A stretch of 64,000 nucleotides of DNA, taken from positions 64,068 through 128,067 of the forward strand of contig JACKFK010000004.1 of NCBI GenBank assembly GCA_020632515.1, in the 5' to 3' direction. Positions 2,552 to 50,328 of this stretch are shown one piece after another. Origin of the DNA: Candidatus Omnitrophota bacterium. GTDB lineage: Bacteria; Omnitrophota; Gorgyraeia; Zapsychrales; Zapsychraceae. A program made the position numbers and the translations under genes. How positions within the stretch are numbered: position 1 is the stretch's first letter; the number at the start of each line of letters is the position of its first letter. The notes below the pieces were generated by a model. The model was not told where the DNA came from. It did not search any database and worked only from the letters and a program-made list of their open reading frames with translations.

Positions 2552-3760
2552 ATGGAAAGCAGTGAACTATTAGGAATATTAGAACAGTTAGAACGCGATA
2601 AAGGGATAGATAAGAAAATTCTTATTGAAGCTGTTGAGGCCGCGGTCGCATCAGCTGCCAGGAAATTATGGACGGTTGATAAGAATCAGGAAATTCATGT
2701 GGAATTAGACCCGAAGAGTGGAAAATTGAAGGCTTTTGCTGATGGAGAAGAAATTCGTTCAAGTGAATTTGGTCGTATTGCGGCGCAGACAGCGAAGCAG
2801 GTGGTTATTCAAAAAATTCGTGAAGCAGAAAAAGATGTTGTGTTTTCAGAATATCAAGCAAGGATTGGAGAGATTATTAGTGGAAGTGTTTATCGATTTG
2901 AACGCGGAAATATTATCATCGACCTAGGAAAAACAGAGGCTTATATTCCTAAAAAAGAACAGTCTAATAAAGAGGAATTTAAACAAGGGGATAGAATTCG
3001 CGCTTATGTTTTGGATGTTAACCGTGAAAGCCGCGGGCCGCAAATTGTACTATCGCGCGCGCATCCTAATTTTGTTAAACGGTTATTTGAAATGGAAGTT
3101 CCTGAGATCTACGAAGGGATTGTAGAGGTAAAGTCAATTGCCCGTGATGTTGGCGAACGAACAAAGATTGCTGTTTATTCAAAAGATGAAAAGGTCGATT
3201 GTGTTGGCGCCTGTGTTGGCATGCGTGGTTCCCGTGTTAAAAATATTGTTTCCGAATTGCAAGGAGAAAAGATTGATATTGTACGCTTTTCGTCTGATAT
3301 TAAGGAATACATACAGGCGGCGCTTTCACCTGCAGAGATTTCACAGATTCAGTTAAACTTTGACGATAAGAAAGCCAATATAATTGTTGCCAATGATCAG
3401 TTATCATTAGCGATTGGGCGTCATGGACAGAATGTCCGTCTAGCAAGTAAACTTGTTGGATGGGAGCTGGATATTTTTTCTTTTGAACAATGGCAGGAGC
3501 TTCAAGATGAGATGGAAGCGGAAGAAGCCAAAGATAATGAAGAAGGTTCTCAAGAAAAAGACGCTGTTAGCGAGAAATCTGATATTACTAAATTAACAGG
3601 TGTTGGTGATAAATTATTAGTGCAATTACAAGAGGCTGGATTTACTTCATTGGAAAAAATTTCCAGTGCGAACGTAGAAGATTTGACACAAATTAAAGGC
3701 TTAGGTAAAATTAAAGCTGAAAAAATGATTGAAGAAGCAAAATCGTTGTTAGATTCATAA
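2552..3760 (+). CDS. nusA: Transcription termination/antitermination factor NusA
   Basis: S1 and two KH domains (GACVGMRGSRV, IGRHGQNVRLAS), an acidic linker and a C-terminal HhH. RBS GAGGAAGG lies upstream. Confidence 0.92.
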   Translation: MESSELLGILEQLERDKGIDKKILIEAVEAAVASAARKLWTVDKNQEIHVELDPKSGKLKAFADGEEIRSSEFGRIAAQTAKQVVIQKIREAEKDVVFSEYQARIGEIISGSVYRFERGNIIIDLGKTEAYIPKKEQSNKEEFKQGDRIRAYVLDVNRESRGPQIVLSRAHPNFVKRLFEMEVPEIYEGIVEVKSIARDVGERTKIAVYSKDEKVDCVGACVGMRGSRVKNIVSELQGEKIDIVRFSSDIKEYIQAALSPAEISQIQLNFDDKKANIIVANDQLSLAIGRHGQNVRLASKLVGWELDIFSFEQWQELQDEMEAEEAKDNEEGSQEKDAVSEKSDITKLTGVGDKLLVQLQEAGFTSLEKISSANVEDLTQIKGLGKIKAEKMIEEAKSLLDS

Positions 3761-3837
3761 CCAATTTAAGATCGAGTAGTCTGACGATAAACGCTTATTA
3801 ATTTTTTTTCGTTTTATAAAGGTTAGGAAATCATTAT

Positions 3838-8065: not shown

Positions 8066-9070
8066 ATGGACGAACATAAAAGAATAATCTTTAATCAAGA
8101 AACAGAAGAAGATCAGGTTTATAGTTTATCCTTGCGCCCTAGTCAGTTGAATGATTTTATCGGGCAGGATGATATTGTTAAAAATCTACAAGTTTCCATT
8201 CAGGCGGCTAAACAAAGACAGGAACCGGTGGAACATATGCTTTTTTCCGGTCCCCCGGGATTAGGAAAAACTTCGTTAGCTAATATTGTTGCTCATGAGA
8301 TGCAGGCAAGAATTACGATTACCTCTGGTCCGGCTATTACTAGAGCAGGAGATCTTATTGGAATACTGACGAATTTAGAAATGGGAGATATTTTATTTAT
8401 CGATGAAATTCATCGTTTATCAAAGGTTGTCGAAGAGTTCCTCTATCCTGCGATGGAGAATTTCAAAATTGATTTTATTGTGGATAAGGGGCCTTACGCT
8501 AAAACAATTAACTTTAATTTAAAACCATTTACACTTATTGGGGCGACAACCCGCAGTGGTTTATTGGCATCTCCTTTAAGAGACCGCTTTGGTATTTTTC
8601 ACCACTTAGAATTTTATGATAGTTCGGATTTAAGCCGGATCGTATTTCATTCCGCCCAGAAATTAAATGTTGTAATTACGAAAGAAGCTGCTTTAGAAAT
8701 TGCCTGTCGATCGAGAGGAACCCCGCGGATTGCGAATCGTCTACTTCGTCGGGTACGGGATTACACGCAGGTAAAAACTAAAGCTGGCGAAATTACTTTA
8801 GAGACGGCACAGGAAGCAATGAAAACTCTAGGCATTGATGGTGTTGGGCTTGATGAAATTGACCGCCGGTTACTTAACGTTGTGGCGCAGCATTATAACG
8901 GCGGACCTGTGGGCATTGAAACCTTAGCCGCCACATTAAATGAAGAAGTCGACACGATTGTTGATGTAATTGAACCATATCTCTTAAAGATTGGTTTTCT
9001 CAGAAGGACACCAAGGGGGCGTGAATTATCTGAAGCCTCATTTAAGCATATCAAAGCGTTATCAGTTTAA
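8066..9070 (+). CDS. ruvB: Holliday junction branch migration helicase RuvB
   Basis: Walker A GPPGLGKTS, Walker B FIDEIHRL, GATTRSG and SRGTPRIANRLLRRVRD. Confidence 0.95.
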   Translation: MDEHKRIIFNQETEEDQVYSLSLRPSQLNDFIGQDDIVKNLQVSIQAAKQRQEPVEHMLFSGPPGLGKTSLANIVAHEMQARITITSGPAITRAGDLIGILTNLEMGDILFIDEIHRLSKVVEEFLYPAMENFKIDFIVDKGPYAKTINFNLKPFTLIGATTRSGLLASPLRDRFGIFHHLEFYDSSDLSRIVFHSAQKLNVVITKEAALEIACRSRGTPRIANRLLRRVRDYTQVKTKAGEITLETAQEAMKTLGIDGVGLDEIDRRLLNVVAQHYNGGPVGIETLAATLNEEVDTIVDVIEPYLLKIGFLRRTPRGRELSEASFKHIKALSV

Positions 9071-9112
9071 CTCCCGACAGACTGATATTGGTCAGAATCT
9101 CATAAAATAGTC

Positions 9113-9328
9113 ATGAATGAATTAGCGAAATCAATTATAATGTTGGGTGTTGTCTTGATTCTGATCGGGACGATATTTTTATTTTTTAATAAATTGCCTG
9201 GTATAGGAAAGCTTCCTGGAGATATCATAATTAAGAAAGAGAATTTTAATTTTTATTTTCCAATAACAAGCTGCATTATTTTAAGTTTTATAATAAGTTT
9301 AATTATTTATTTATGGAATCATCGCTAA
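9113..9328 (+). CDS. Small membrane protein, DUF2905-like
   Basis: Two TM segments with a KLPGDI...FYFPI pattern typical of DUF2905. Confidence 0.6.
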   Translation: MNELAKSIIMLGVVLILIGTIFLFFNKLPGIGKLPGDIIIKKENFNFYFPITSCIILSFIISLIIYLWNHR

Positions 9329-10491
9329 AATATCGCTGCATATTTCTTTTAATCCTTCTTTCATTATTTTCATTTTTAATATTTCTTCCTCAAACAGTAT
9401 TTTCAGAAGAATTAAATATTCGTATTGCAGTTGCTAAGAAAATTGATAATTGTGTAATTGCTATTCGAGGAGGATATCAAATTATAGATTTGTCCAATGG
9501 TAAGGTTCTTGAGGACGCGCGAAAATTAGATCCCGCACGAGTAGTATTTCGAAACAACGGTATACATATCGGAAAGAGATTTTATCAGTTAAAGCGTGTT
9601 CGCATTGATCTGCAAAAAGATGTCGCGTTATTTGTTAATAATGTGAAAAAGCGTTACCGCGGATCAATTGATATTATTGGAGATCCTAAAGACGGATTAA
9701 CAATAATTAATAGTTTGGATCTTGAGACGTATATTAAAGGAGTTCTTTATCATGAAGTTTCGCATAAATGGCCATTGGAGGCGATGCAGGCGCAGGCCGT
9801 GGCCACGCGAACTTACGCTTTATATCAAATGAAAAAGAATGCGAAAATGTCATTTGATGTGACCAGTGACATTTATTCTCAGGTTTATGGCGGACGCAGT
9901 GCGGAACGATATCGTACGAATTTAGCCGTGGAAAGAACTAACGGGGAGGTTCTTTCCTTTAATGGGGAGGTTTTACCGGCATATTTTCATTCGAACAGCG
10001 GGGGGCATACGGAAGATGTAAGTGAATTATGGGAGCATGATTTACCACCTTTAAAAGGCGTGAAGGATGAGTTTGCGCAGTCAGCGCCGAGTTATCAATG
10101 GAAGAAGAATTTTAAATCCAGTGATATTCAAAATAAATTAAATCAGCATGGATTTAATCTTGGGCTTATTAAAGAAATTCGAGTCGTTGAGCGAAATAAA
10201 AGCGGACGGATTCGGAATCTCGAAATTCTTACGCGTGACGGTAAATCCAAAATTATTTCTGGAAAGAAATTTCGAGAAATTATCGGACCTAACGAGATTC
10301 GCAGCAATATGTATGATGTTGTGATGAAGGGTTATTATTTTGATCTTATTGGAAAAGGTTGGGGGCACGGGGTGGGGATGTGTCAGTGGGGAGCGTATAC
10401 GATGTCGCAGCAGCGATATAATTATGAAGAAATTTTAAAGTACTACTATCCTGGAGTAGAAATTGTAAAAGTAGGTTATGACTATGAATAA
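9313..10491 (+). CDS. SpoIID/LytB-domain protein (peptidoglycan amidase enhancer family)
   Basis: Signal peptide, AVATRTYAL, YFHSNSGGHTEDV and GWGHGVGMCQWGA motifs. Confidence 0.85.
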   Translation: MESSLKYRCIFLLILLSLFSFLIFLPQTVFSEELNIRIAVAKKIDNCVIAIRGGYQIIDLSNGKVLEDARKLDPARVVFRNNGIHIGKRFYQLKRVRIDLQKDVALFVNNVKKRYRGSIDIIGDPKDGLTIINSLDLETYIKGVLYHEVSHKWPLEAMQAQAVATRTYALYQMKKNAKMSFDVTSDIYSQVYGGRSAERYRTNLAVERTNGEVLSFNGEVLPAYFHSNSGGHTEDVSELWEHDLPPLKGVKDEFAQSAPSYQWKKNFKSSDIQNKLNQHGFNLGLIKEIRVVERNKSGRIRNLEILTRDGKSKIISGKKFREIIGPNEIRSNMYDVVMKGYYFDLIGKGWGHGVGMCQWGAYTMSQQRYNYEEILKYYYPGVEIVKVGYDYE

Positions 10492-32324: not shown

Positions 32325-32554
32325 AAGCCGATAAAGGTAAACCCGGAGAAATCCGGGGACACAAAACTACAGGCCTAAATTGTCTACGACCGGGAAGGCT
32401 CTTATAAAGAGCAGATAAAGACGATATGTAAGGTCAAGGGGCGATATGGTGGCTGAGTTGCCGAAGACTGGGCGTTCTATAACGTTCAAGACGTATCTTT
32501 ATGAGGGATACGCAGGTAAGGAGGGAGAAATCCTCTCTTTATCGGCTTTTTTTT
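32325..32554 (+). ncRNA. Structured small RNA of unassigned class (~230 nt), with its 5' and 3' ends paired and ending in a U8 tract
   Basis: AAGCCGAUAAAG (32325-36) pairs perfectly with CUUUAUCGGCUU (32537-48), followed by T8. Internal hairpins lie at 32342-57 (GAAA loop), 32398-412, 32450-63, 32472-85 and 32492-512. It has its own promoter and lies in a 470-bp noncoding gap. Confidence 0.5.
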
Positions 32555-32647: not shown

Positions 32648-32947
32648 ATGTCTGAGCATTTTATCCGTTTCTATAAAAAATTAAATCTTAGTGAAATTAC
32701 ATCGCAATTATTGATTTATGGTGATTTATCGGGCCATTGCGCGCATTGTCAAGCCATGGACATTGGGTTGGACAAAGAAAAATGTCCGCAATGCGGTTGT
32801 GTATTTCATTTTATTGCATTTCGTAATCCAAAATCCCATTTTCCTAAAATGCATAAATTAATCGAAACGCGCAATCTTAAGATTATTGATTATGACGATT
32901 ATAAACACGCAACAGCAGCCTCGAAAGCGCAGGATTTTTTGAAGTAA
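32648..32947 (+). CDS. Small Zn-ribbon protein (CxxC ... CxxC), function unknown
   Basis: HCAHCQ and CPQCGC cysteine pairs. No SD; an extended -10 (TGtTATAAT, 32630-38) sits 10 nt upstream of the ATG. Confidence 0.55.
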   Translation: MSEHFIRFYKKLNLSEITSQLLIYGDLSGHCAHCQAMDIGLDKEKCPQCGCVFHFIAFRNPKSHFPKMHKLIETRNLKIIDYDDYKHATAASKAQDFLK

Positions 32948-35956: not shown

Positions 35957-37240
35957 TTAACCGTTCCAAAAAACAGATTTGAAAGGTTTAGGGATAAGAG
36001 TGGGCAGATTGAGTTGATTCAACCATGTGATAACCTGCGGTAAATCTTCCGGAATATAAACTTCGGTTTCAATCAATCCTTTGCATTTCGCATATTTAAT
36101 ATTCTGATATAAATCATCTGGGCTCTGGCAGGTTTCTTTATTAAGAAAAACTGCTTGTTTCGGTGCTTTCTCGTCAGGATAAAATAAAAATGGATTGTCG
36201 CTAAGAAATGTCCTTAAGGCTAAAGTATCTTTTAACGGGATAAGGCGAAAATATTCTTTTGGAAGTTTTTGCGGACGCGGTATGATTTCTGCTAATAAGC
36301 GCATTTTAAAACGGGTGAGCCCTTCACGGAAAAAGGGAGGCGTTCCTCCAAGGTTGACATTATGAAACCCCTTCTTTTTAAGTTCTACAATGGGGAAATA
36401 ATACAAAGAACCTAAAACTCCCTGTTTAAGATATTTGGAGTCGCCATCTTTAATCCCTACAACTCTTAATTGAGCATTCTGGCCGTCATATTCGATCATA
36501 CCTCCTCCGAGATTGGTGCCATTATTTTTTACCAGGAAAAAATCTGATCGATGAAAAATATCTTTGAGTTGCAAGTCTCCAATAAAGACGGCAGCTTGAT
36601 TATGACGGTTTAAGATAAAAGGCTTGTGCATGGTTTCATAAAATTGTTGAAATTGATTCCAACAGCGGCAAAATTCATGATGAAGGTGGTTTTTTCGGAT
36701 AAGTCGGGCTATATCGCTAAAGCCACTTTTACTTCTTCGATGTAATTCCGACATGGGCGGGGTGATATCAATACTCATGTACATCCAAAAGGGAATAGTG
36801 AAGCCGGGTAATGATTTAAAAAAAGAATGGCTGAATGTGTTTAATTCAAGATTCAGTAAAGCGCATTGAGGGTATTGTTTGGTTACAGTTTGGGGAATCT
36901 GCCAATAAAAATGTTGACCAATCGGTTTTTGGGAGTATCCCGACCGGAAAATCTTTTTTAGCCAATAAGCCCGGCGGGGCGTTTCGTGTCCAGCATAAGC
37001 GAAACAAAAGTCAAGGTCATTTCCAGCAAGTTGACCTTCATAGATTGTTACAGGTAAATAGATTTTTTTGGTAGTTTTAACCGAATGTAAAAATAATGGG
37101 ATTTTGTTGGATTTTCGCCAGGAAAGTGGAAGTTTGTGATGAAGATAGGCTAAGGAACGCTTCGTATTATTTGAAAGACTCATGATTTCTGTAAAAAAGC
37201 CTTTAATCTTTTTTAGTTTGTATAGATAAATCCTCAACAA
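35957..37240 (-). CDS. Hypothetical protein with a FemAB/CelD-like GNAT acyltransferase-type C-terminal half (tentative)
   Basis: The region LGGGMIEYDG..LRVVGIKDG...KQGVLGSLYYFPI..KKKGF..VNLGG resembles the GNAT (Acetyltransf_6-like) core. The start is uncertain (TTG at 37240 or ATG at 37183). Confidence 0.45.
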   Translation of the reverse strand: MLRIYLYKLKKIKGFFTEIMSLSNNTKRSLAYLHHKLPLSWRKSNKIPLFLHSVKTTKKIYLPVTIYEGQLAGNDLDFCFAYAGHETPRRAYWLKKIFRSGYSQKPIGQHFYWQIPQTVTKQYPQCALLNLELNTFSHSFFKSLPGFTIPFWMYMSIDITPPMSELHRRSKSGFSDIARLIRKNHLHHEFCRCWNQFQQFYETMHKPFILNRHNQAAVFIGDLQLKDIFHRSDFFLVKNNGTNLGGGMIEYDGQNAQLRVVGIKDGDSKYLKQGVLGSLYYFPIVELKKKGFHNVNLGGTPPFFREGLTRFKMRLLAEIIPRPQKLPKEYFRLIPLKDTLALRTFLSDNPFLFYPDEKAPKQAVFLNKETCQSPDDLYQNIKYAKCKGLIETEVYIPEDLPQVITWLNQLNLPTLIPKPFKSVFWNG

Positions 37241-39887: not shown

Positions 39888-41174
39888 ATGCGAACGATTA
39901 ATAGCGAGAAATATTTTAAAGAAGCAAAGAAGAATTTAGTTGGCGGAGTCAACAGCCCTGTTCGTTCGTTTAAAGGTGTTGGCGGGCAAGCCCTTGTTAT
40001 GAAACGAGGATTACGGGCGCAGCTATTTGATTACGATAATAATGCCTATACAGATTATTGTTTATCATGGGGAGCGCTGATTCTTGGGCACGCACATCGA
40101 AATACAATTTTAGCTGCTAAGAAAACTGTGGAAAAAGGGACCAGTTTTGGAACAACTACCCGTGAAGAAATTGATATGGCTGCGCATATTGTCAAGGCTG
40201 TTCCATCTATTGAACGAATCCGGTTTGTTAATTCTGGTACAGAAGCCACAATGAGTGCTATTCGTCTTGCTCGAGGTTTTACGCAACGCGAACTTTTAGT
40301 GAAATTTGACGGATGCTACCATGGGCACTTTGATGATCTGTTGACTAAAGCCGGGTCTGGAGTTTCGCAATTAAAGGAATCCTCTAGTTTAGGAATTCCT
40401 AAAGCGCATGTTAATAATACGATCAGTCTTCCTTACAATGATAGTGAAGTTTTAGAAAAGACTTTAAAAAAATTTCAAAAAGAAATTGCTTGCGTGATTA
40501 TTGAACCTGTGGCGGGAAATATGGGGGTTATTCCGGCTAGAACCGAGTTTTTGCAGTTGCTGCGTGATTTAACAAAACGGTTTAATATTGTTCTTATTTT
40601 TGATGAGATTATGACGGGTTTTCGCACTAACGCGGGATGTGTACAATCTGATTATAAGATTATTTCTGATATGACTTGCTTAGGTAAGATTATCGGTGGA
40701 GGATTTCCTATTGGTGCTTATGGTGGGCGTGAAGAAATTATGAATTGTTTAGCCCCTTTAGGTGGAGTGTATCAGGCAGGGACTTTTTCGGGTAATCCTG
40801 TTGTTATGAAGACAGGGCTAGCAGCATTAAAACTTTTGAATAAAGATTTTTATCGGGTGTTAAATGAACGCTGTGAACAGTTTGCTCAGCATATGAATGC
40901 TTATTTCACAGAGAAAGGAATCAGCGCGCATCTATCACATTATAAATCGATGATGAGTATACGATTTCGTTCGGAATTAGTAGATAATTATGACGATGCG
41001 CTAGCGGCTGCAGGCGGCGAAGTCTATAGCCGGCTATTTCATTATTTGTTGAAAATGGGAATATACTGGCCGCCAGCAGATTTAGAGGCTTTTTTTGTCA
41101 GCAGCGCGCATTCAAAAAATGATTTAAATCAATTGGCAGATGCGTTAAAGAAATTTTTTAATAATAAAGTTTAG
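39888..41174 (+). CDS. hemL: Glutamate-1-semialdehyde 2,1-aminomutase
   Basis: GGVNSPVRSF, NSGTEATM, FDEIMTGFR and the PLP-lysine region LGKIIGGG. Confidence 0.95.
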   Translation: MRTINSEKYFKEAKKNLVGGVNSPVRSFKGVGGQALVMKRGLRAQLFDYDNNAYTDYCLSWGALILGHAHRNTILAAKKTVEKGTSFGTTTREEIDMAAHIVKAVPSIERIRFVNSGTEATMSAIRLARGFTQRELLVKFDGCYHGHFDDLLTKAGSGVSQLKESSSLGIPKAHVNNTISLPYNDSEVLEKTLKKFQKEIACVIIEPVAGNMGVIPARTEFLQLLRDLTKRFNIVLIFDEIMTGFRTNAGCVQSDYKIISDMTCLGKIIGGGFPIGAYGGREEIMNCLAPLGGVYQAGTFSGNPVVMKTGLAALKLLNKDFYRVLNERCEQFAQHMNAYFTEKGISAHLSHYKSMMSIRFRSELVDNYDDALAAAGGEVYSRLFHYLLKMGIYWPPADLEAFFVSSAHSKNDLNQLADALKKFFNNKV

Positions 41175-41214
41175 AAATTTCGTAAGAGTTAGTAAACCAA
41201 GAAAGGAATACGAT

Positions 41215-41610
41215 ATGAATAATGAATTAAGAAAAATAGCAATAGCCGTTTTAATCGGGATTGTTCCTATAGTGACGACTGGGTGTATTCCGTTAGTTTT
41301 AGGCGCGGCAGCTGGTGCTGGCGGTGTTGTCTTTATTAAAGGAAATCTTGAGAAGAATTTGGATTCTTCGGTTAAGCAGGTGCATAAAGCGTCGTTAGCC
41401 GCAATGGAAAAGCTTGATTTATTTATTGTAGATGATGATTTGGATGTTCATGATGCGAAAATTAAAGCAGAAGATTTTGATGGGAAGTCTATTTTAATTA
41501 CCGTAAAAGCTTTAACAGAACGTTCTTCAAAATTAACAGTCCGTGTTGGTGTTTTAGGTGATGAAGAGCGATCTGCGCACATTATTTCAGAAATTGAAAG
41601 CAAGCTGTAA
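41215..41610 (+). CDS. Lipoprotein (DUF3568-like)
   Basis: Lipobox VTTGC followed by a Gly/Ala-rich segment. Confidence 0.6.
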   Translation: MNNELRKIAIAVLIGIVPIVTTGCIPLVLGAAAGAGGVVFIKGNLEKNLDSSVKQVHKASLAAMEKLDLFIVDDDLDVHDAKIKAEDFDGKSILITVKALTERSSKLTVRVGVLGDEERSAHIISEIESKL

Positions 41611-41766
41611 TTAAAAGATTGATTATTATTCCTCCTTCTGTGTCTAAGTAATGAAAAGCCCAGAGGAGGAATGATATGATTGAATCTGAATAAATAAAAA
41701 TTTATCTTTGTTAAAATAAGAACTATTGAAATGCAATGTTGAAAAAAAACAGATAAGAATTTATTT

Positions 41767-42483
41767 ATGTCAGATGTTGTTTCTAAAAGAAATATTACTG
41801 TAATAATCCCTGCCTTTAACGAAGAAAAATCCTTGCCAAATGTTGTCAAAGATCTTCCCAAAGTATTAATTAATGATATTATTGTAGTGGATAATAACAG
41901 CACTGATCAAACAGCGAGTATTGCCAAACAACTGGGTTGTCGAGTAGTTTCCGAATCAATTAAAGGATATGGACAGGCTTGTTTAAGCGGCATCGCTGCA
42001 CTTTCCGCAAAGACTGAAATAGTTGTTTTTATTGATGGAGATTACAGTGATCATCCAGAGCAATTACCTATTTTGATTCAGCCGATTCTAGACGATAAAT
42101 TTGATTTTGTAATAGGATCCCGGATTGCGGGAAGAAGAGAACATAAGGCAATGACTCCACAGGCGTATTATGGCAATAAATTGGCATGTTTCTTAATGAA
42201 ATTGTTTTGGAATGTCGATTATACGGATTTAGGCCCTTTTAGGGCTATTACTTATCCTGCGTTACAACGTTTAAATATGCAGGATAGAGATTTTGGCTGG
42301 ACTATTGAAATGCAGATTAAAGCAGTTCAATGCGGACTTCGCATTACAGAAGTTCCGGTTGATTATCGCTGCCGGATCGGAAAATCAAAAATCTCGGGAA
42401 CGATTAAGGGAACTATTTTAGCTGGTGAGAAAATCTTAAGAACAATCTTTAAATATAAATTTTTTAACAAAAATTTAAAATGA
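41767..42483 (+). CDS. GT2 glycosyltransferase, polyprenyl-phosphate sugar synthase type (DPM1/ArnC-like)
   Basis: VIIPAFNEE, VVDNNSTD, FIDGDYSD (DxD) and a short single-domain size. Confidence 0.85.
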   Translation: MSDVVSKRNITVIIPAFNEEKSLPNVVKDLPKVLINDIIVVDNNSTDQTASIAKQLGCRVVSESIKGYGQACLSGIAALSAKTEIVVFIDGDYSDHPEQLPILIQPILDDKFDFVIGSRIAGRREHKAMTPQAYYGNKLACFLMKLFWNVDYTDLGPFRAITYPALQRLNMQDRDFGWTIEMQIKAVQCGLRITEVPVDYRCRIGKSKISGTIKGTILAGEKILRTIFKYKFFNKNLK

Positions 42484-42493
42484 GATAAAAATA

Positions 42494-44083
42494 ATGAATA
42501 AAAGACTTTTTATCATTGGTATTTTATGCGCACTTCTTTGGGGATATATTTCTTTAATGACTAAAGGATTTCCTCAGGCGTGGGTGGATATGCTTGATAA
42601 TTATACAGGGCATACTGTATCCAAACAGATTCAGCAAATGGTCAATGGATTTCATTACGATACCAGAAACAATGTGATGCCAACAGCTGCCTTTTTGACT
42701 TTATTTTATATCATTTTCGCAATGGTTTTTTATTTGATCATCGCAATACAAAAGAGAGAAGCGCAAACAGGATCATTATTGTTAGTGGTTTTCTTTTCGC
42801 TTGTTTTTAGGGTTATTTTATTGTTCAGTGTGCCGATTCATGAAAACGATATTTATCGTTATATGTGGGATGGAAAAGTTTTTAAGAGTGAAATTAATCC
42901 ATACAAATATTCTCCATCGGATTTATTTATGTATGAAAATAAATATAAAGATGATTTCTACGACGGTTTTCATGAAGTTACGCTAAAAGCCAAAGAATTT
43001 GAATACCGTGATCAGGAGCGTTTAGATACGCTTCTCAAATTGAGAGATCAAAATCAAACCAATTATGAGCGCATCGGTCATTGGCAGGTTCCAACAATTT
43101 ATCCGCCCATGGCACAGCTTGTTTTTTTATTAGCCGCCAAGCTTAAAGTAGATCATCTTATTTTTTTGAAAGGAATATTTATTTTATTTGATTTGGGGGT
43201 GCTTGTTCTTATTATTGGCATTTTGAAGTGCCTTAATAAAAATCCTTGTCTTTCATTAATTTATGGTTGGTCTCCTTTGGTTTTGAAAGAATTTGCTAAT
43301 TCAGGACATTATGATCCGATTGTTATTTTCTTTACCATGTTTTGTCTTTATTTATTTCTTAAAACAAATCATAAACGTAGCAGTTTGATGCTGGCGTTGG
43401 CGGTATTGAGTAAATTCTTTTCTGGAGTCTTGCTGCCAATTTTAGGCCGATATTGGTCTTTAATTCATTTAGTTATTTTTAGTTTTACCATTCTTCTTTT
43501 GTATGTGCCATTTTTTATTTGGAATGACGCGGGAATTGCGGGTGTTTTTGAAGGGTTACGGACATATAACGAGCAATGGTCGTATAATTCCAGTATCTTT
43601 GCTGGGATATATGTTTTGTTAAAACAATACGCGCCGAATTTTACTGAAACTTTGTGGCCGGCAAAAATGATCGTGGGAGGGATTTACTTATTTTTTCTTA
43701 TAATTCTAGTCGTATGGAAAGCGCCGCAAGCAACGCGAATTAATAATAAATTTGTTCTAAACAAGAATCAACAATTAATCATTATGCATCGATGCTTTTT
43801 AGCTGTGGCGGTACTATTTATTATCAATCCAGTGGGGGATCCTTGGTATTTTTGTTGGGTTATTCCTTTTCTCTGTATCTTTCCATATAAGTCGTGGTTA
43901 CTGCTTTCCGGTTTATTAGCGTTTTCCTATATTAATTTTCAATCCGATTATAGTATTGTTGGTGCAAGGTTTTTGGATATTTCTCTTACGACCTGGATTA
44001 TTTATACGCCATTCTTTCTTTATTTTTTTATAGAGAATATTTTCCGCCCCTCATTTGTTTTAGATATGAAGAAAAATATGTAA
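42494..44083 (+). CDS. Large polytopic membrane protein, GT-C-fold glycosyltransferase-like (DUF2029/PMT_2-like)
   Basis: At least 10 TM segments. The first extracytoplasmic loop carries an acidic ENDIYRYMWDG motif. The gene starts 10 nt after the GT2 gene. Confidence 0.55.
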   Translation: MNKRLFIIGILCALLWGYISLMTKGFPQAWVDMLDNYTGHTVSKQIQQMVNGFHYDTRNNVMPTAAFLTLFYIIFAMVFYLIIAIQKREAQTGSLLLVVFFSLVFRVILLFSVPIHENDIYRYMWDGKVFKSEINPYKYSPSDLFMYENKYKDDFYDGFHEVTLKAKEFEYRDQERLDTLLKLRDQNQTNYERIGHWQVPTIYPPMAQLVFLLAAKLKVDHLIFLKGIFILFDLGVLVLIIGILKCLNKNPCLSLIYGWSPLVLKEFANSGHYDPIVIFFTMFCLYLFLKTNHKRSSLMLALAVLSKFFSGVLLPILGRYWSLIHLVIFSFTILLLYVPFFIWNDAGIAGVFEGLRTYNEQWSYNSSIFAGIYVLLKQYAPNFTETLWPAKMIVGGIYLFFLIILVVWKAPQATRINNKFVLNKNQQLIIMHRCFLAVAVLFIINPVGDPWYFCWVIPFLCIFPYKSWLLLSGLLAFSYINFQSDYSIVGARFLDISLTTWIIYTPFFLYFFIENIFRPSFVLDMKKNM

Positions 44084-44150
44084 GGAAACGGTAGATATAT
44101 CGACAAATAGCTATTGAGACTGTGTTGATATTTATAAGAAAGAGGATTTA

Positions 44151-44915
44151 ATGAGGAAAATAATTTATTGCCTGTGTCTTTGCTTGATTGTTTTAGCTTG
44201 TTCCGGAGAAGATGCGCAGACACAAAATGATGCCTCCAGTCGTGAAGAGATTAATTATTCACTTTGGGACAATGTTCTTAAAACGTATGTTAATGAACAA
44301 GGACGAGTAGATTATGAAGGGCTATTAAAGGATCGGCATAAGTTTGATCAGTTTATTGCTCAGGTAGAAAAGGTGAATATTTCAACCTTTACGCCGCAAG
44401 AGCAAAAGGCTTTTTGGATTAACGCGTATAATGCAATCACCATGAAGGTTATTGTGGATAACTATCCGGTTAAAGGAATTAGGACAATTAATTTTGGGTT
44501 GGTATGGAATGTGGGGAGAAATGTAGCTGGAGGAAAAAAGAGTTTAAGTGACATTGAACATAAGATTTTACGACTGTTAGGTGATCCACGCATTCATTTT
44601 GCTATTAACTGTGCATCAATTGGTTGTCCGAGACTACTTAATAAACCTTTTTATCCAGAAACGTTAGATGAGCAGTTGGATCGGGAGGCAGTCCGATTTA
44701 TCAATGATCCTGAGAAAATTAAATTAGACCGTGCAACCAACACCCTTTTTTACTCTGCTATTTTAGATTGGTTTGAAGAGGATTTCTTAGTTGTTGAATC
44801 AGATATCCTAAGTTATATTAAACGGTATATTAATAAGGAAGATCGAGATTATATTTCCTCGCATGAAATTATGTTGAAGGTGACTAAATATGATTGGGGT
44901 TTAAATAAGCAATAA
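44151..44915 (+). CDS. DUF547-domain lipoprotein
   Basis: Lipobox VLAC, then FWINAYNA...HFAINCAS.GCP, characteristic of DUF547. Confidence 0.7.
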   Translation: MRKIIYCLCLCLIVLACSGEDAQTQNDASSREEINYSLWDNVLKTYVNEQGRVDYEGLLKDRHKFDQFIAQVEKVNISTFTPQEQKAFWINAYNAITMKVIVDNYPVKGIRTINFGLVWNVGRNVAGGKKSLSDIEHKILRLLGDPRIHFAINCASIGCPRLLNKPFYPETLDEQLDREAVRFINDPEKIKLDRATNTLFYSAILDWFEEDFLVVESDILSYIKRYINKEDRDYISSHEIMLKVTKYDWGLNKQ

Positions 44916-44925
44916 AGGAGAAGGT

Positions 44926-45978
44926 ATGTCGTCATTAACTCATCAGAAAGTTTCAGAATATTACGGAAAAGTTTTGCAAACAAAAAAAGATTTAAAGACG
45001 AGCGCGTGTTGCACGCTTGATAAATTACCTGCATATGTGAAAGAACCGTTAAAGCTCATTGAAGATGAAATACAAACTAAATTTTATGGATGCGGGTCCC
45101 CTATCCCCTTAGTGTTGGACGGAATGAAGATTTTGGATCTTGGTTGCGGAACAGGCCGAGATTGTTTTGTCTTGTCTTATTTTGTGGGAGAGCAAGGGGA
45201 AGTTGTTGGGGTGGATATGACGGAAGAACAGCTTGAAGTAGCCAACCGTTATTTACCTATTCAGATGAAGAAATTTGGTTTTTCAAGCCCAAATGTCCGT
45301 TTTGTGAAAGGGTATATTGAGGATTTAAGTTCTATTAAAATTCCGGATAATTATTTTGATATTGTTATTTCTAATTGTGTGGTTAATCTTTCTCCTGATA
45401 AAGAAGCTGTTCTTAATGAAGTTTATCGAGTTCTTAAAGAAGGTGGAGAATTTTTCTTTTCGGATGTGTATGCCGATCGACGGTTACCGGAGTGGGCCAA
45501 AAAGGATCCGATTCTTTTAGGGGAGTGTTTGGGAGGATCATTCTATTGGAAAGATTTTGAACGCATGGCAAAATGCATTGGATTTAATGATCCGCGTATT
45601 TTTGCCTGTTCAAAAATTGATCTGCTTGATCAAGAAACGATTGATAAAATCGGTTTCGCGAATTTTAATTCAATTACATATCGGTTATTTAAGTTAAAAG
45701 AATTAGAAGACGCTTGTGAAGATTACGGTCAAGTGGCCTATTATAAAGGTACAATTAAAGAGAGTCCGCATCATTACATGCTTGATAATCATCATTTGTT
45801 AGAGAAAAATAAACCTTTAACTGTTTGTTCTAATACAGCATCAATGCTTCAGGATACCCGGCTTTCTCAGCATTTTGCTATCAAAGGTGATCTTAGTACT
45901 CATTATGGATTGTTTGCTGGTTGCGGTGAATCACCTATTCAGAAAGCCGAAGATAAACCAATGGGAGGATGCTGTTAA
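44926..45978 (+). CDS. arsM: Arsenite S-adenosylmethionine methyltransferase, AS3MT/ArsM type
   Basis: Collinear with my memory of human AS3MT: YYGKVL, YGCGSPIP, ILDLGCGTGRDCFVLS, VGVDMT, SNCVVNLSPDK, GGEFFFSDVY, GECLGG..YW and a C-terminal GGCC. All four catalytic-type Cys positions are present. Confidence 0.8.
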   Translation: MSSLTHQKVSEYYGKVLQTKKDLKTSACCTLDKLPAYVKEPLKLIEDEIQTKFYGCGSPIPLVLDGMKILDLGCGTGRDCFVLSYFVGEQGEVVGVDMTEEQLEVANRYLPIQMKKFGFSSPNVRFVKGYIEDLSSIKIPDNYFDIVISNCVVNLSPDKEAVLNEVYRVLKEGGEFFFSDVYADRRLPEWAKKDPILLGECLGGSFYWKDFERMAKCIGFNDPRIFACSKIDLLDQETIDKIGFANFNSITYRLFKLKELEDACEDYGQVAYYKGTIKESPHHYMLDNHHLLEKNKPLTVCSNTASMLQDTRLSQHFAIKGDLSTHYGLFAGCGESPIQKAEDKPMGGCC

Positions 45979-46060
45979 AACGTATTTCATCGGTTGGGAC
46001 TCGAATTTCATGATTTCTTATTACGAATGAAGAGTCTCAGCGGCATACATTTCAATTTTC

Positions 46061-46714
46061 ATGCCCATCGATATTATCATTCCTGTCTTTAATGAAGAAG
46101 AAATCCTCCAAGAAAAAAGAGTTTATTATAATTCTTTAAAACAATGGGCGCGTATTTATTTTGTGGATGGCGGTAGTAGCGATCGGACTGTAGCAATTGC
46201 CAGAAAGTATGGTGATATTGTGTTATCTAATAAAGGCCGGGCTGTCCAAAAAAATCGAGGTGCGTACGAATCTAAGTCTGAATATTTATGTTTTCTTCAT
46301 GTTGATTCGTATATCACAGAACATGCGTTAAAGCAGGCTCAGGCTTTTTTGGCTAAAGGGAACAGTGTTGGATGTTTTTCTATGAAGATCGAAGACCGGA
46401 AACTAATCTTTCGTTTATATGAAAGGGTTGTCAATTGGCGGGCGGGCGCATTAGGTGTTTTTGACGGAGATTTAGGATTGTTTATTAAGCGTGAGGCTTT
46501 TGAACAACTAGGGGGCTTTGATAAATTGCCGATTATGGATGATGTGGCCTTTGGTCAGAAAATTAAAAGATCTTCTTCAATGAAGCTGCATGTATTAACA
46601 GAGGATATTCAAGTCTCCAGCCGCAAATGGTATAAACAGGGTTTTATTAAAACATTTTTTTTATATTCATTAGCATATATTCAATTATGGACAGGAATAA
46701 AATTTTTTAAATAA
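46061..46714 (+). CDS. GT2-like transferase of the TIGR04283 type (annotated by NCBI as an arsenosugar-biosynthesis glycosyltransferase family)
   Basis: IIIPVFNEE, VDGGSSDRT, NKGRAVQKN.GA and FLHVDS pattern. Confidence 0.7.
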   Translation: MPIDIIIPVFNEEEILQEKRVYYNSLKQWARIYFVDGGSSDRTVAIARKYGDIVLSNKGRAVQKNRGAYESKSEYLCFLHVDSYITEHALKQAQAFLAKGNSVGCFSMKIEDRKLIFRLYERVVNWRAGALGVFDGDLGLFIKREAFEQLGGFDKLPIMDDVAFGQKIKRSSSMKLHVLTEDIQVSSRKWYKQGFIKTFFLYSLAYIQLWTGIKFFK

Positions 46715-46720
46715 ACGCAC

Positions 46721-47401
46721 ATGTCAATTGAACACAAGACAACAGCGCTTATCATTTTTGCCCGGGAACCTAAGCTGGGGAAAGTAAAAACCCGTCTAGC
46801 CAAAGATATTGGAAAAGAAGATACGTTAAAATTATATCAGCTGTTTTTAAAACATATTTTTGCTATAGCGAAGAAAGTAACCTGTGATCAGAAATTTATT
46901 TTTTATGTTGGTCATGGACGATCGCTTCCTTTTCTTCGACAATTTACCAGTGATTTTATTCTAAGACGGCAGACCGGGGCTGATTTGGGGCAACGGATGT
47001 ATCGGGCTTTTAAACATGTTCAGCAACAAGGTTATCAAAAGGTTGTAATCATTGGAACCGATTGTTTAACTATTAGTACGTTTGATCTTCAAAATGCTTT
47101 TCGTAAATTAGAGCGTAATGACTGTGTGATTGGCCCAGCTCACGACGGTGGATATTATTTGCTCGGATTACGCGTTTTTGATTTAAGATTGTTTTCCGGA
47201 ATTAAATGGAGCAGTGAATGGGTTTATGCGGCCACAATTCAGAAATTTAAAAAATTGCATTTAAGTTATGCTGCTTTAGCCAAACAAGAAGATGTTGATA
47301 GGATTGATAATCTTCGTCGGACTTTTAAAAAAATTCAAAATAACGCAGGTTCTGCAGCGCTTATCGCTTTTATTCGTATTATCTTAAAGAAAAATACATA
47401 A
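46721..47401 (+). CDS. DUF2064 / TIGR04282-type transferase (the partner family of TIGR04283)
   Basis: LIIFAREPKLGKVKTRLA, IIGTDC and GPAHDGGYYLLGL motifs. Starts 6 nt after the preceding gene. Confidence 0.7.
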   Translation: MSIEHKTTALIIFAREPKLGKVKTRLAKDIGKEDTLKLYQLFLKHIFAIAKKVTCDQKFIFYVGHGRSLPFLRQFTSDFILRRQTGADLGQRMYRAFKHVQQQGYQKVVIIGTDCLTISTFDLQNAFRKLERNDCVIGPAHDGGYYLLGLRVFDLRLFSGIKWSSEWVYAATIQKFKKLHLSYAALAKQEDVDRIDNLRRTFKKIQNNAGSAALIAFIRIILKKNT

Positions 47402-47509
47402 TTTATTTTTTCTCCGTAGTTCTACGCACTTATGTGGGTACTTCTGCGCATATACACTATTTTTATTAATCCTATAATAATACTATCCTAGAAGAAAGGA
47501 GTGTGTGAC

Positions 47510-47986
47510 ATGCCTATTAAAAAATTAAAGAAATACTTAGATGAGCATAAAATTAAATATGTGTCTTTTAGTCATTCTACAGCTTACACAGGACAAGAAA
47601 TTGCAGAAGCTGCGCATATTTCCGGTAAGGAATTAGTTAAGGCTGTTATTCTTAAGGTTGATAATGAATTAGCCATGGTTGTCTTGCCAGTATCTTTTCG
47701 GATTGATTTTGATCTTTTAAAACAATCACTTAATGCTGAAAAAATTGAATTAGCCACAGAAGATGAATTTATAGATTGGTTTCCTGACTGTGAAATCGGG
47801 GCTATGCCACCATTTGGCAATTTATATGGAATACCGGTATTTGTGGCAAATCGTTTGGAAGAACAAGAAATGATCACCTTTAATGCCGGAAACCATCGTG
47901 AGTTGATTCAAATGAGATTTCATGATTATAAACGGTTGGTTAATCCACAAATGGTTGATATGACCTTTGTGTCAGTTTATTTTTGA
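47510..47986 (+). CDS. YbaK/ProX-type aminoacyl-tRNA deacylase-domain protein
   Basis: Size and pattern of the tRNA_edit domain (K.V.LK, GAMPPFGNLYG). RBS AGGAG lies 8 nt upstream of the ATG at 47510. Confidence 0.65.
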   Translation: MPIKKLKKYLDEHKIKYVSFSHSTAYTGQEIAEAAHISGKELVKAVILKVDNELAMVVLPVSFRIDFDLLKQSLNAEKIELATEDEFIDWFPDCEIGAMPPFGNLYGIPVFVANRLEEQEMITFNAGNHRELIQMRFHDYKRLVNPQMVDMTFVSVYF

Positions 47987-48019
47987 TAAGTAAATTTTTA
48001 AAGAAAGGAGGGATAAAAA

Positions 48020-48262
48020 ATGATGACACAAATTGGCATAGTTGCAGGCGAGATTATCACTGTCCTTGAAAGTAAAGGAGGTGTGATTACTTTAGATGAG
48101 CTTGTGATCAGGTTAGATGAACCTAAGGATCTCATTAAAATGAGTTTAGGGTGGTTAATTCGGGAAGGATTGGTATTTATAGATGAAAGAACAAAGAAAT
48201 TTTCGTTAAATCGAACTTATAAGATGGATCCTGATTATGTAAATTATGCAGTTAATATATAA
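48020..48262 (+). CDS. Small winged-helix protein (DUF2582-like)
   Basis: 80 aa with a G.I...L...G..TL.EL......D....SLGWL.REG pattern. RBS GGAGGG. Confidence 0.5.
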   Translation: MMTQIGIVAGEIITVLESKGGVITLDELVIRLDEPKDLIKMSLGWLIREGLVFIDERTKKFSLNRTYKMDPDYVNYAVNI

Positions 48263-48427
48263 GTCTTTCAGATTAATTTTTACAAGATCACAAATCCCTA
48301 CAAATTATTAAGTAATACCTTCATTTAATTTTCTTTCATAAAAACCTTACAGAAATTTAATATTTATATGTTATACTTATACCTAATTTTAGAATAATTA
48401 CTTCTAACTATTGGAAAGGTGTAATTT

Positions 48428-48784
48428 ATGGATATTCAAATTAATGTATCAGAGCGCCCATGGGGCTATTATATTAAATTTTTGCAAGAATCAGGGGTTT
48501 GGGTAAAGCGAGTTGAAGTAAAACCTGGTGCTAGATTGAGTTTACAAAAACATTCTCATCGTTCTGAAAAGTGGAATATTGTAACAGGAGAAGGCGTTGT
48601 AACCCTTGACGATAAAGAGATCCCGGTAAAAGCAGGGTCTGTTATTGATGTGCCTTTAGGTGCGGTTCATCGGATTGCGAATACAGGCCAAGAACGATTG
48701 GTGTTTATTGAAGTTGCTTGCGGAGAGCATCTATCCGAAGATGATATTGAACGGATACAGGATGATTATGATCGTGGGCAATAG
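48428..48784 (+). CDS. Cupin-domain protein (type II phosphomannose isomerase C-terminal cupin-like)
   Basis: RPWG.Y, SLQKHSHRSEKW and VHRI.N cupin motifs. Confidence 0.75.
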   Translation: MDIQINVSERPWGYYIKFLQESGVWVKRVEVKPGARLSLQKHSHRSEKWNIVTGEGVVTLDDKEIPVKAGSVIDVPLGAVHRIANTGQERLVFIEVACGEHLSEDDIERIQDDYDRGQ

Positions 48785-48838
48785 AATTGTTTAAGTAAAA
48801 ATTTATTATTTATTATCTTTCCTTTAATGCTACTTTTA

Positions 48839-50203
48839 TTATTCTTTCCTTAAATTTGACGGCAGGATATGTAATGCTTGACGGTATTTACTAACAGTGC
48901 GTCGAGCAACTTTAAATCCTTTTCTTTCAAAAAGATTTTGAATATCTTGATCAGAAAGAGGGTGAGATTTATCCTCTTCCGCGATAATTGAACGAATTTC
49001 TTCTTTAATGCTATGAGATGAAATTGATTCCTCGCCTTCTTGATTAATCCCCTGGGTAAAAAAGAATTTCATTGGCAAGAGTCCTTGTGGGGTTTCCATA
49101 TATTTGTTATTAATGGCCCGACAAACTGTGGATTCATTACGGGAAATCACTTGAGCGATATCTTTAAGAATCATAGGTTTTAAGGCTGCAGATCCTTGAT
49201 CAAAGAAGTCTTTTTGATATTTCACAATATATTGGGCAATTTGGTAAATCGTTTGATTGCGTTGATCAATGCTTTTAATAAAAGTCAGCGCGTTTTTAAT
49301 TTTCTCTTTGATAAATTCCTTTTCTTCGGCGGAACGATTGTTTTGTTTAAGCATTGTTTGATAAAAATGACTGATACGTAAACAAGGGATAGTGTCTTGA
49401 TTGATAACGACTTGGTATTGATCATTATTATCTTTAACAATATAGACATCGGGTTTAATGTAAATATTTTCGTTTACTGGTCGATAACTTCTGGCAGGTT
49501 TTGGTTCTAAAGTTGCTATAACGTGCGCGAGATGTTGAATTTTTTCCTGCGATATTTTTAAAGCTTTGGCAATATCAGCGTATTTTTTACGGCCTAATTC
49601 ATTGAAATGATTTGTTATGATTTCCCGCAGTAATTCTGTATCTTGATAGATTTTATAGTGAATTTGTATGAGTAAACATTCCGTTAAATCTCGTGAGGCA
49701 ATGCCTAATGGTTCGAAATTTTGTATGGTTAAGAGTATTTCTTCTACTAATTTAACATTATCTGTTCCTGCTAAGGCGGCAATTTCTTTGCAGCTGCAAT
49801 GAAAGTAGCCGTCTTCATTTAAATTGCCAATAATTAATTCGCCTATTTTAATCTCTAAAGGATTGGTAACCTCTAAGTGAAGCTGCTGAAGTAGATAGTC
49901 TTCAAGAGGGGTAAATTCTGCGATGGGCTTTTCTTCATACTCCTCCTCATTCTGGAAATATGAGGGGGTAAGCAGGGAATTATCCTCCTGGTTCTTTAAT
50001 TTAGATTGAAGAATTTCTTCAAATTGATCATGATCATTGGTGCTGCTTTTTTCATCAATTTCTAGAAGCGGATTATTCTGTAATTCCAGCTCAATAGCAG
50101 TATTGAGTTCTTCTATAGGTAAAAGAAGGACTTCAATAGATTGTTGCATATGAGGCGCTAAGACCGTCTTTTGGATTTGGCTGGGATTGAGTTTAATTTT
50201 CAT
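48839..50203 (-). CDS. rpoN: RNA polymerase sigma-54 factor
   Basis: N-terminal Gln/Leu-rich region I (QQSIEVLLLP..EL...IE.EL..NP.LE), core-binding domain, HTH, and the RpoN box ARRTVSKYR. The ATG at 50203 matches where the homology starts. Confidence 0.93.
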   Translation of the reverse strand: MKIKLNPSQIQKTVLAPHMQQSIEVLLLPIEELNTAIELELQNNPLLEIDEKSSTNDHDQFEEILQSKLKNQEDNSLLTPSYFQNEEEYEEKPIAEFTPLEDYLLQQLHLEVTNPLEIKIGELIIGNLNEDGYFHCSCKEIAALAGTDNVKLVEEILLTIQNFEPLGIASRDLTECLLIQIHYKIYQDTELLREIITNHFNELGRKKYADIAKALKISQEKIQHLAHVIATLEPKPARSYRPVNENIYIKPDVYIVKDNNDQYQVVINQDTIPCLRISHFYQTMLKQNNRSAEEKEFIKEKIKNALTFIKSIDQRNQTIYQIAQYIVKYQKDFFDQGSAALKPMILKDIAQVISRNESTVCRAINNKYMETPQGLLPMKFFFTQGINQEGEESISSHSIKEEIRSIIAEEDKSHPLSDQDIQNLFERKGFKVARRTVSKYRQALHILPSNLRKE

Positions 50204-50328
50204 ATTAGCAAGTATACCATAATTTAAAATATACAACAATTATATTTATAGTGAAGGACAAGTTTTGTAACTTGTTGAAATATAAAGGGGTTTTAGTTAT
50301 GTCGCACAACAAAAAGTGTTGATAAAAT

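Follow-up and report, generated by a model that had tools for sequence, protein, structure and literature searches.

An arsenosugar-type gene set in an Omnitrophota genome, arranged with envelope-type glycosyltransferases and without a local radical-SAM partner

The organoarsenical, or "arsenosugar-type," gene set of bacteria was originally called "rSAM/selenodomain-associated," and two of its protein families, TIGR04282 and TIGR04283, bear the NCBI name "arsenosugar biosynthesis glycosyltransferases," which rests on gene neighborhood alone. The radical S-adenosylmethionine (SAM) protein ArsS adenosylates trivalent dimethylated arsenic, DMAs(III), to 5'-deoxy-5'-dimethylarsinoyl-adenosine (PMC13598754). 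In Synechocystis sp. PCC 6803, arsS is co-transcribed with arsM, which codes for the As(III) SAM methyltransferase that supplies the DMAs(III) (bioRxiv 10.1101/2022.09.23.509062, citing Xue et al. 2017/2019). The locus described here lies in a stretch of 64,000 nucleotides (the whole of it is called the window below) on contig JACKFK010000004.1 of a Candidatus Omnitrophota bacterium (GCA_020632515.1). Like Synechocystis, it has an As(III) SAM methyltransferase to supply DMAs(III), and its partner families are those that NCBI names for arsenosugar biosynthesis. It differs in having no ArsS in 64 kb, in a methyltransferase of the long AS3MT type, and in the additional genes for TIGR04283, TIGR04282, a DUF547 protein, a family 2 glycosyltransferase (GT2), and a polytopic membrane protein, a probable glycosyltransferase of the GT-C type. 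The block is an Omnitrophota-specific arrangement of the organoarsenical gene set with its radical-SAM partner missing locally. The split layout is often seen, and the locus is a variant of a known, biochemically unfinished gene set in a lineage-specific arrangement with envelope glycosyltransferases, and not a new pathway.

The other close point of comparison is the canonical cluster of the Bacteroidota. For example, the cluster of Gelidibacter sediminis (locus L067) runs TIGR04169 peroxidase-like (191 bits), ArsS, rhodanese NF045521 (199 bits), TIGR04282, purine nucleoside phosphorylase (PNP; 337 bits), OlsE-like fatty-acid hydroxylase, DUF547, and TIGR04283 (224 bits), and most canonical Bacteroidota clusters contain a methyltransferase of the AsSugarArsM family, NF038099. 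TIGR04282, TIGR04283, DUF547, and an ArsM-family methyltransferase are common to these clusters and the window, and in many Bacteroidota loci, a close homolog of the window's upstream GT2 is found a few kilobases away. The window, however, is without ArsS, the TIGR04169 peroxidase-like protein, the rhodanese, the PNP, and the fatty-acid hydroxylase, its methyltransferase fails NF038099, and its GT2 and GT87-like genes are joined into the same block. The genes of the block are as follows.

41767..42483, + strand: GT2 glycosyltransferase resembling Dpm1, AglJ, and PpgS (polyprenyl-phosphate sugar synthases), 238 aa; first gene of the conserved block
42494..44083, + strand: polytopic membrane protein, probable GT-C glycosyltransferase, GT87/MptB-like, 529 aa
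44151..44915, + strand: DUF547 protein (PF04784), predicted exported lipoprotein, 254 aa
44926..45978, + strand: AS3MT/ArsM-type As(III) SAM methyltransferase, 350 aa; matches 5EVJ and 4FR0 over the full length
46061..46714, + strand: TIGR04283-family GT2 with a soluble GT-A domain, 217 aa
46721..47401, + strand: TIGR04282/DUF2064 protein with a CofC/FbiD-like nucleotidyltransferase fold, 226 aa

An earlier note on this DNA had described the last four of these as tightly packed + strand genes with gaps of 10, 82, and 6 nt, and the open reading frame (ORF) calls bear this out. Judged by conserved gene order, however, the unit is larger than four genes, because the Dpm1/AglJ-like GT2 and the GT87-like GT-C upstream share a conserved block with the others in five Omnitrophota genomes. 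The spacing between the GT2 and GT-C genes is 10 nt and that between the GT-C and DUF547 genes is 67 nt. The genes from 41767 to 47401 form one co-directional block, probably an operon. A scan of 41000-48900 for promoters and terminators gave counts no better than those in shuffled sequence and was uninformative on operon boundaries, while an Rfam scan of the window found no riboswitch or other RNA in or near the block.

The lack of a local ArsS was also part of the earlier note, and it stands. No ORF of at least 60 aa in the window has the CxxxCxxC motif of radical-SAM proteins, and no arsR, arsC, or acr3 was found when the 68 non-overlapping ORFs of the window were inspected and Pfam was run on the unassigned ones; apart from the block, these ORFs are those of housekeeping functions, of rpoN, and of polysaccharide export. 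With two genuine ArsS proteins (443 and 424 bits on TIGR04167) as tblastn queries, nothing better than E=0.7 was found in the window, and two other cluster-linked radical SAM proteins gave E=0.47 at best.

Such a locus is far from rare. In a survey anchored on TIGR04282 (80 loci, one genome per species, mostly Bacteroidota), ArsS was found within 10 kb in 43 loci and was missing in 37; where the 10 kb flanks were complete, it was present in 29 of 51 loci and missing in 22. A second survey was anchored on AS3MT-type methyltransferases in metagenomes and covered 80 loci, 20 of them with at least 5 kb on both sides. TIGR04283 or TIGR04282 was nearby in 11 of the 20, with ArsS in six of the 11 and none in the other five. 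An ArsS-less locus is thus ordinary, since 22 of 51 TIGR04282 loci and 5 of 11 AS3MT-type metagenome loci are without ArsS, and the statement in the earlier note that the transferase families usually accompany ArsS was too strong. Its naming of the gene families and its report of the absence of ArsS from the window were right, the four-gene extent was too small, and the two alternatives that it left open, an ArsS encoded elsewhere or another product of the set, remain the right way to put the question.

With modest confidence, we favor the first of these, a split organoarsenical cluster whose ArsS is encoded elsewhere in the genome. The evidence leans this way because a metagenome contig has ArsS flanked by the methyltransferase and TIGR04283 orthologs and because fusions of ArsS to ArsM exist. 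The contig, obtained from JGI (locus L098), has the order MsrB, methyltransferase, TIGR04283 (201.3 bits), PiT, ArsS (TIGR04167, 441 bits), TIGR04282 (190 bits), and MsrA. Its methyltransferase and TIGR04283 are 74% and 49% identical to those of the window, which, in sequence comparison, is the same range as in the genomes that share the whole block. The 6 nt gap between TIGR04283 and TIGR04282 in the window is the very site at which L098 carries PiT and ArsS.

The fusions of ArsS to an AS3MT-type methyltransferase include a protein of 715 aa in L126 (167-2314; TIGR04167, 402 bits, plus ArsM), one of 707 aa in L138 (8924-11047), and one in the Elusimicrobia locus L041 (10097-11494, - strand) that is cut by the contig end and adjoins TIGR04283 and TIGR04282. 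Fused ArsS::ArsM proteins also occur (P0363 and P0366) as members of 90% clusters represented by Omnitrophota-named ArsS. Another fusion of the AS3MT type is P0169, and the fusions span several uncultivated lineages.

ArsS itself is widespread in Omnitrophota, and four of the five ArsS loci from this phylum had no methyltransferase within 10 kb. The layouts of these four are TIGR04283-TIGR04282-Pyr_redox-VTT-ArsS (L089), GT2-DUF547-FA hydroxylase-ArsS (L091, on a chromosome of 1.82 Mb; FA, fatty acid), DUF547-GT2-...-VTT-ArsS-TIGR04282 (L092), and ArsS alone (L095). The sole one with an adjoining methyltransferase, L094 (GCA_018896855.1), has ArsS, a methyltransferase split over two frames (2957-3948), and TIGR04282. 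The split AS3MT-like gene of L094, for which the source annotation has no call, reflects either a frameshift in a pseudogene or a mistake in the assembly. The ArsS loci of the phylum are fragmented; in Omnitrophota, the methyltransferase and ArsS are thus usually encoded apart from each other.

The methyltransferase matches the Chlamydomonas ArsM structure 5EVJ with E=7.5e-106 (query residues 8-336), the Cyanidioschyzon CmArsM structure 4FR0 with E=3.5e-89 (residues 7-332), and 8XT7 with E=5.6e-74, so that the homology to structurally characterized ArsM is full length and includes the C-terminal domain. Its Cys28, Cys56, Cys151, and Cys201 are in the motifs TSAC, FYGCG, SNCV, and GECLGG and align with conserved Cys motifs of CmArsM, in which we take the catalytic and arsenic-binding residues to be C44, C72, C174, and C224. 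The 5EVJ and 4FR0 alignments thus agree with the earlier description of the protein as collinear with AS3MT and possessing all four catalytic Cys. The full-length collinearity, the four Cys, and the SAM-binding motif are shared with human AS3MT, Cyanidioschyzon ArsM (4FR0/4FS8), and Chlamydomonas ArsM (5EVJ). Here, though, the protein is from Omnitrophota and its gene is in a biosynthetic-looking operon rather than an ars resistance operon. Inferred from this homology, the product made from As(III) and SAM would be DMAs(III).

The protein scores under every NCBIfam ArsM cut-off (NF008823, 169.1 bits vs. 263; AsSugarArsM NF038099, 114.5 bits vs. 400), compared to 565.8 bits on NF038099 for the methyltransferase of a canonical Bacteroidota cluster. 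It therefore belongs to the long AS3MT type and not to the "arsenosugar ArsM" subfamily of the Bacteroidota. The identity to the window methyltransferase is 77-82% across the four other genomes with the block, compared to 66-76% for hemL (39888-41174). The methyltransferase is more conserved than hemL and is therefore under stronger constraint than a housekeeping enzyme. In public data, there are about 90 protein clusters at 65-83% identity to it, and the named ones are nearly all from Omnitrophota.

The two genes downstream had been assigned to TIGR04283 and TIGR04282 in the earlier note, and both proteins score above the trusted cut-offs of these families. The pass is marginal for TIGR04283 (186.4 bits vs. 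a cut-off of 182, over positions 2-213 of the 221 in the profile), whereas TIGR04282 is matched over its whole profile with 200.9 bits vs. a cut-off of 134. On Pfam, the TIGR04282 protein is a DUF2064 member (PF09837, 119.6 bits) with 27.8 bits for CofC, and its score on the CofC profile TIGR03552 is 32.7 bits vs. a cut-off of 105. Among solved structures, it matches the DUF2064 structure 3CGX with E=2e-28. An AlphaFold2 model of the protein (predicted local distance difference test [pLDDT] score, 93.7) ranks 3CGX first with a template modeling (TM) score of 0.87, followed by the CofC, FbiD, and 3-phosphoglycerate guanylyltransferases at 0.68-0.72 and then cytidylyltransferases. In this model, the fold looks like that of a CofC/FbiD-like nucleotidyltransferase and not like that of the glycosyltransferase that the family name implies. 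The fold and an N-terminal K-T/S-R-L loop are shared with 3CGX and with the CofC/FbiD guanylyltransferases of F420 biosynthesis (2I5E, 6BWH, and 7P97), but the sequence identity is just 13-15%. In a neighbor-joining tree, the window-type TIGR04282 proteins formed a clade of their own apart from the ArsS-linked Omnitrophota copies, which could be taken as a sign of paralogy. The pairwise identities undercut this: the protein of L098 is 37% identical to that of the window, and the paralog argument is not relied on because this is about as distant as L179 and L181, which share the block and are at 40%.

The assignment of the DUF547 gene held as well (PF04784, 85.8 bits vs. a gathering threshold of 27). 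The N-terminus of the protein, MRKIIYCLCLCLIVLAC followed by S, satisfies the lipobox rule, and among 43 cluster-linked DUF547 homologs, a signal peptide or a lipobox is frequent. In all 43, a C-x4-C pair (C154 and C159) is invariant, as are R147, H149, and E136. A sequence search for solved relatives of the protein found none, a single-sequence AlphaFold2 model was discarded for its pLDDT of 49, and, among the papers listed that mention DUF547, titles and abstracts held no clue to its function.

By resemblance, the two genes at the start of the block code for cell-envelope glycosyltransferases. A small Dpm1-like GT2 with a polytopic GT-C is the usual pairing of a donor synthase and a periplasmic transferase. 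The same order, a small Dpm1-like GT2 and then a polytopic GT87-like protein, is seen here as in polyprenyl-phosphate sugar relays (Dpm1/AglJ/ArnC-type GT2 with GT-C proteins such as ArnT, PMT, and the GT87 mannosyltransferases). In contrast to those relays, neither protein reaches a curated family cut-off, and the link to arsenic is by neighborhood only. The GT2 (41767-42483) has 82.6 bits on Pfam Glycos_transf_2, and its best NCBIfam matches are AglJ (144 bits), dolichyl-phosphate hexose transferase, and PpgS, all under cut-off. About 15 Bacteroidota loci among the 80 surveyed have a homolog of it (about 250-280 bits by phmmer) no more than 10 kb from TIGR04282, and at least three arrangements are seen among them. 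The GT-C protein (42494-44083) has at least nine hydrophobic segments, no Pfam match, and an NCBIfam MptB score of 21.9 bits vs. a cut-off of 40. Its orthologs in L008, L179, and L181 carry Pfam GT87 or MptA_B_family matches, and Bacteroidota homologs that adjoin TIGR04282 reach 32 bits on GT87 vs. a cut-off of 25.

If the cluster is a split one, its products could act in the following order. The AS3MT-type ArsM would methylate As(III) with SAM to DMAs(III), as its strong homology and intact four-Cys site indicate. ArsS, most likely encoded at an unlinked locus of this genome, would then adenosylate the DMAs(III). Next, adenine would be removed by a nucleoside phosphorylase, the gene for which is absent here but adjacent to the set in Flavobacteriaceae. 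The resulting sugar phosphate would be nucleotidylated by TIGR04282, and the activated sugar would presumably be transferred by the TIGR04283 GT2. Finally, and more speculatively, the Dpm1-like GT2, the GT87-like GT-C, and the exported CX4C DUF547 protein might finish the product or attach it on the outer face of the membrane by way of a polyprenyl-phosphate carrier. This last step is suggested because a Dpm1-like GT2, a GT87-like GT-C, and an exported DUF547 lipoprotein with CX4C occur together. In the Flavobacteriaceae clusters, the PNP gene is directly 3' of TIGR04282 (L067 10594-11409, NF006054, 337 bits; an equivalent gene is in L077), and a PiT/PHO4-type transporter gene is inside two ArsS clusters (L098 9128-10306 and L176 10975-12105). 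The PNP and the transporter are plausible components of the pathway outside its usual description.

The block is shared by five Omnitrophota genomes, namely that of the window, L008 (GCA_028280285.1), L009 (Omnitrophota OFTM38, JAJDCA010000011.1), L179 (GCA_020429985.1), and L181 (GCA_030429765.1). Their common order is hemCD-hemL-DUF3568-GT2-GT87-[DUF547]-methyltransferase-TIGR04283-TIGR04282-GT4/cupin, where the brackets mark the DUF547 gene, which three of them retain. All five have intact, conserved genes for the methyltransferase, TIGR04283, and TIGR04282. The identity to the window is 68-75% for the upstream GT2 in the four other genomes, 48-55% for TIGR04283, 40-54% for TIGR04282, and 44-52% for the GT-C. 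A genomic island, or horizontal transfer, was considered and ruled out: the block is vertically inherited, given that GC content is flat and the synteny beside hemCD-hemL extends over five genomes.

The strongest competitor to a split cluster is a lineage with no ArsS at all. In that case, the methyltransferase would only methylate arsenic for detoxification or volatilization, and TIGR04283 and TIGR04282 would work with the GT2, the GT-C, and the GT4 and cupin proteins to build an arsenic-free envelope glycoconjugate. This is possible, though we consider it on the unlikely side, and a series of observations weighs in its favor and against an ArsS encoded elsewhere. No ArsS is found in the 44 kb upstream or the 17 kb downstream that the window covers, and none within 10 kb in any of the five syntenic genomes. 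All five place the module among glycan genes (GT2, GT87, GT4, ManC-like cupin, and, beyond rpoN, Wza/Wzz-type export genes). The accessory genes of ArsS clusters (TIGR04169, rhodanese NF045521, PNP, FA hydroxylase, PiT, VTT/DedA, Pyr_redox, and Msr) are absent from the window, where tblastn with representatives from L067, L089, L092, and L098 gave no match at E<=0.01. Among the best 120 of about 8000 ArsS matches, nine are named Omnitrophota, and none of the nine falls in the accession blocks of the window's assemblies (MCB97469xx and MCA9408-9409xxx, as set by the proteins MCB9746929-31, MCA9408844, and MCA9409056), which is weak evidence.

The behavior of TIGR04282 in other genomes points in the same direction. 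TIGR04282 with GT2 and GT87 and no ArsS recurs in Bacteroidota. For example, in the Cytophagales-type loci L036, L082, L085, L038, and L061, TIGR04282 comes directly after a Dpm1-like GT2, a GT21-like GT2 of about 485 aa, and GT87, with neither ArsS nor the methyltransferase. In another Omnitrophota genome, L006 (GCA_029261065.1), a window-type TIGR04282 gene stays in the same glycan neighborhood, and it is coupled to a radical SAM gene other than ArsS. The methyltransferase gene of L006 is on that contig too, about 10 kb from TIGR04282 and beyond the 20.7 kb stretch covered around it. The radical SAM gene (8775-10004) codes for a 409-aa protein of the twitch/SPASM type and has a 4-nt overlap with TIGR04282 that points to another radical-SAM partner for the latter; the 409-aa protein has 72 bits on NF033640, under the cut-off, and TIGR04167 is not among its matches at E<=1e-8. 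Also, we know of no experiment that has shown the function of TIGR04282, TIGR04283, or DUF547.

What keeps a true absence in second place is the company of the methyltransferase. All close relatives seen, L097, L098, and L099 among them, have its gene next to that of TIGR04283, as do many distant lineages, and such persistence would be difficult to account for if the two did not act in one pathway. The L098 ortholog of TIGR04283 sits in a cluster that contains ArsS, and the ArsS::ArsM fusions tie this type of methyltransferase to ArsS.

It is rather doubtful, but conceivable, that the module works without or beyond ArsS as an envelope-decoration pathway. In such a pathway, the substrate that TIGR04282 nucleotidylates would be a phosphorylated sugar, perhaps an arsenoribose. 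Polyprenyl-phosphate would be charged with it by TIGR04283 and the Dpm1-like GT2, and its attachment or processing outside the cytoplasmic membrane would fall to the GT87-like GT-C together with the CX4C DUF547 lipoprotein. If so, the envelope of Omnitrophota, and of some Bacteroidota, would contain a glycoconjugate that is organoarsenic or unusual in another way.

Improbable, to a greater degree, is a coincidental adjacency, in which a detoxification methyltransferase and a DUF547 gene would have come to sit beside glycan genes that have nothing to do with them. In its favor, the block is modular, because the DUF547 gene is missing from two of the five syntenic genomes and L097 has no GT2 or GT87 between hemL and the methyltransferase. 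Against a coincidence, the order methyltransferase-TIGR04283(-TIGR04282) recurs across phyla, with methyltransferase identities of 50 to 82%, and the genes are 6-82 nt apart, with nothing that resembles a terminator between them. Least probable of all is that ArsS has been replaced by another enzyme (a radical SAM protein encoded elsewhere, or one that transfers adenosyl without radical chemistry) and an organoarsenic sugar is still made without TIGR04167: the gene of L006 and the non-ArsS radical SAM genes that also lie beside TIGR04282 in L083 and L084 would fit it, but the window has neither a homolog of the L006 gene (best tblastn E=0.47) nor a CxxxCxxC ORF, and no biochemical precedent was found in the literature searched.

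The surroundings of the block add some landmarks. On its 3' side are the GT4 and ManC-like cupin genes, and just downstream is rpoN (48839-50239, - strand), after which come a MerR-like gene and genes of the Wza/GNVR type for polysaccharide export. The rpoN landmark is conserved in several Omnitrophota genomes (the window, L006, L008, and L004). GC skew is positive in each 2 kb bin of the window (1-64000), and nearly all genes are on the + strand, the genes off it being rpoN and an unassigned ORF of 427 aa at 35957-37240. The positive skew and the gene orientation are consistent with a single segment of a leading-strand replichore. At some distance upstream, a c-di-GMP-I-GGC riboswitch aptamer lies at 32327-32466 on the + strand (Rfam, 61.5 bits vs. 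a gathering score of 59, over the full model), and about 180 nt downstream of it is an ORF for a Cys-rich double-zinc-ribbon protein of 99 aa (32648-32947).

Omnitrophota are an uncultivated, largely anaerobic phylum. The conservation of the methyltransferase above that of hemL means that arsenic methylation may be a core trait of the phylum, which is relevant to the question of who methylates arsenic in anoxic sediments and groundwater. The locus and its relatives also show that, in nearly half of the sampled loci, TIGR04282 and TIGR04283 have no ArsS close by and that genes for PNP, a Dpm1-like GT2, a GT-C, and an exported CX4C protein are their repeated neighbors. A testable order of reactions, from phosphorolysis through nucleotidyl activation and glycosyl transfer to a lipid-carrier step, is proposed because of these ArsS-less layouts, the nucleotidyltransferase look of TIGR04282, and the recurring partners. 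It bears on the steps after ArsS in the biosynthesis of arsenosugars and arsenolipids.

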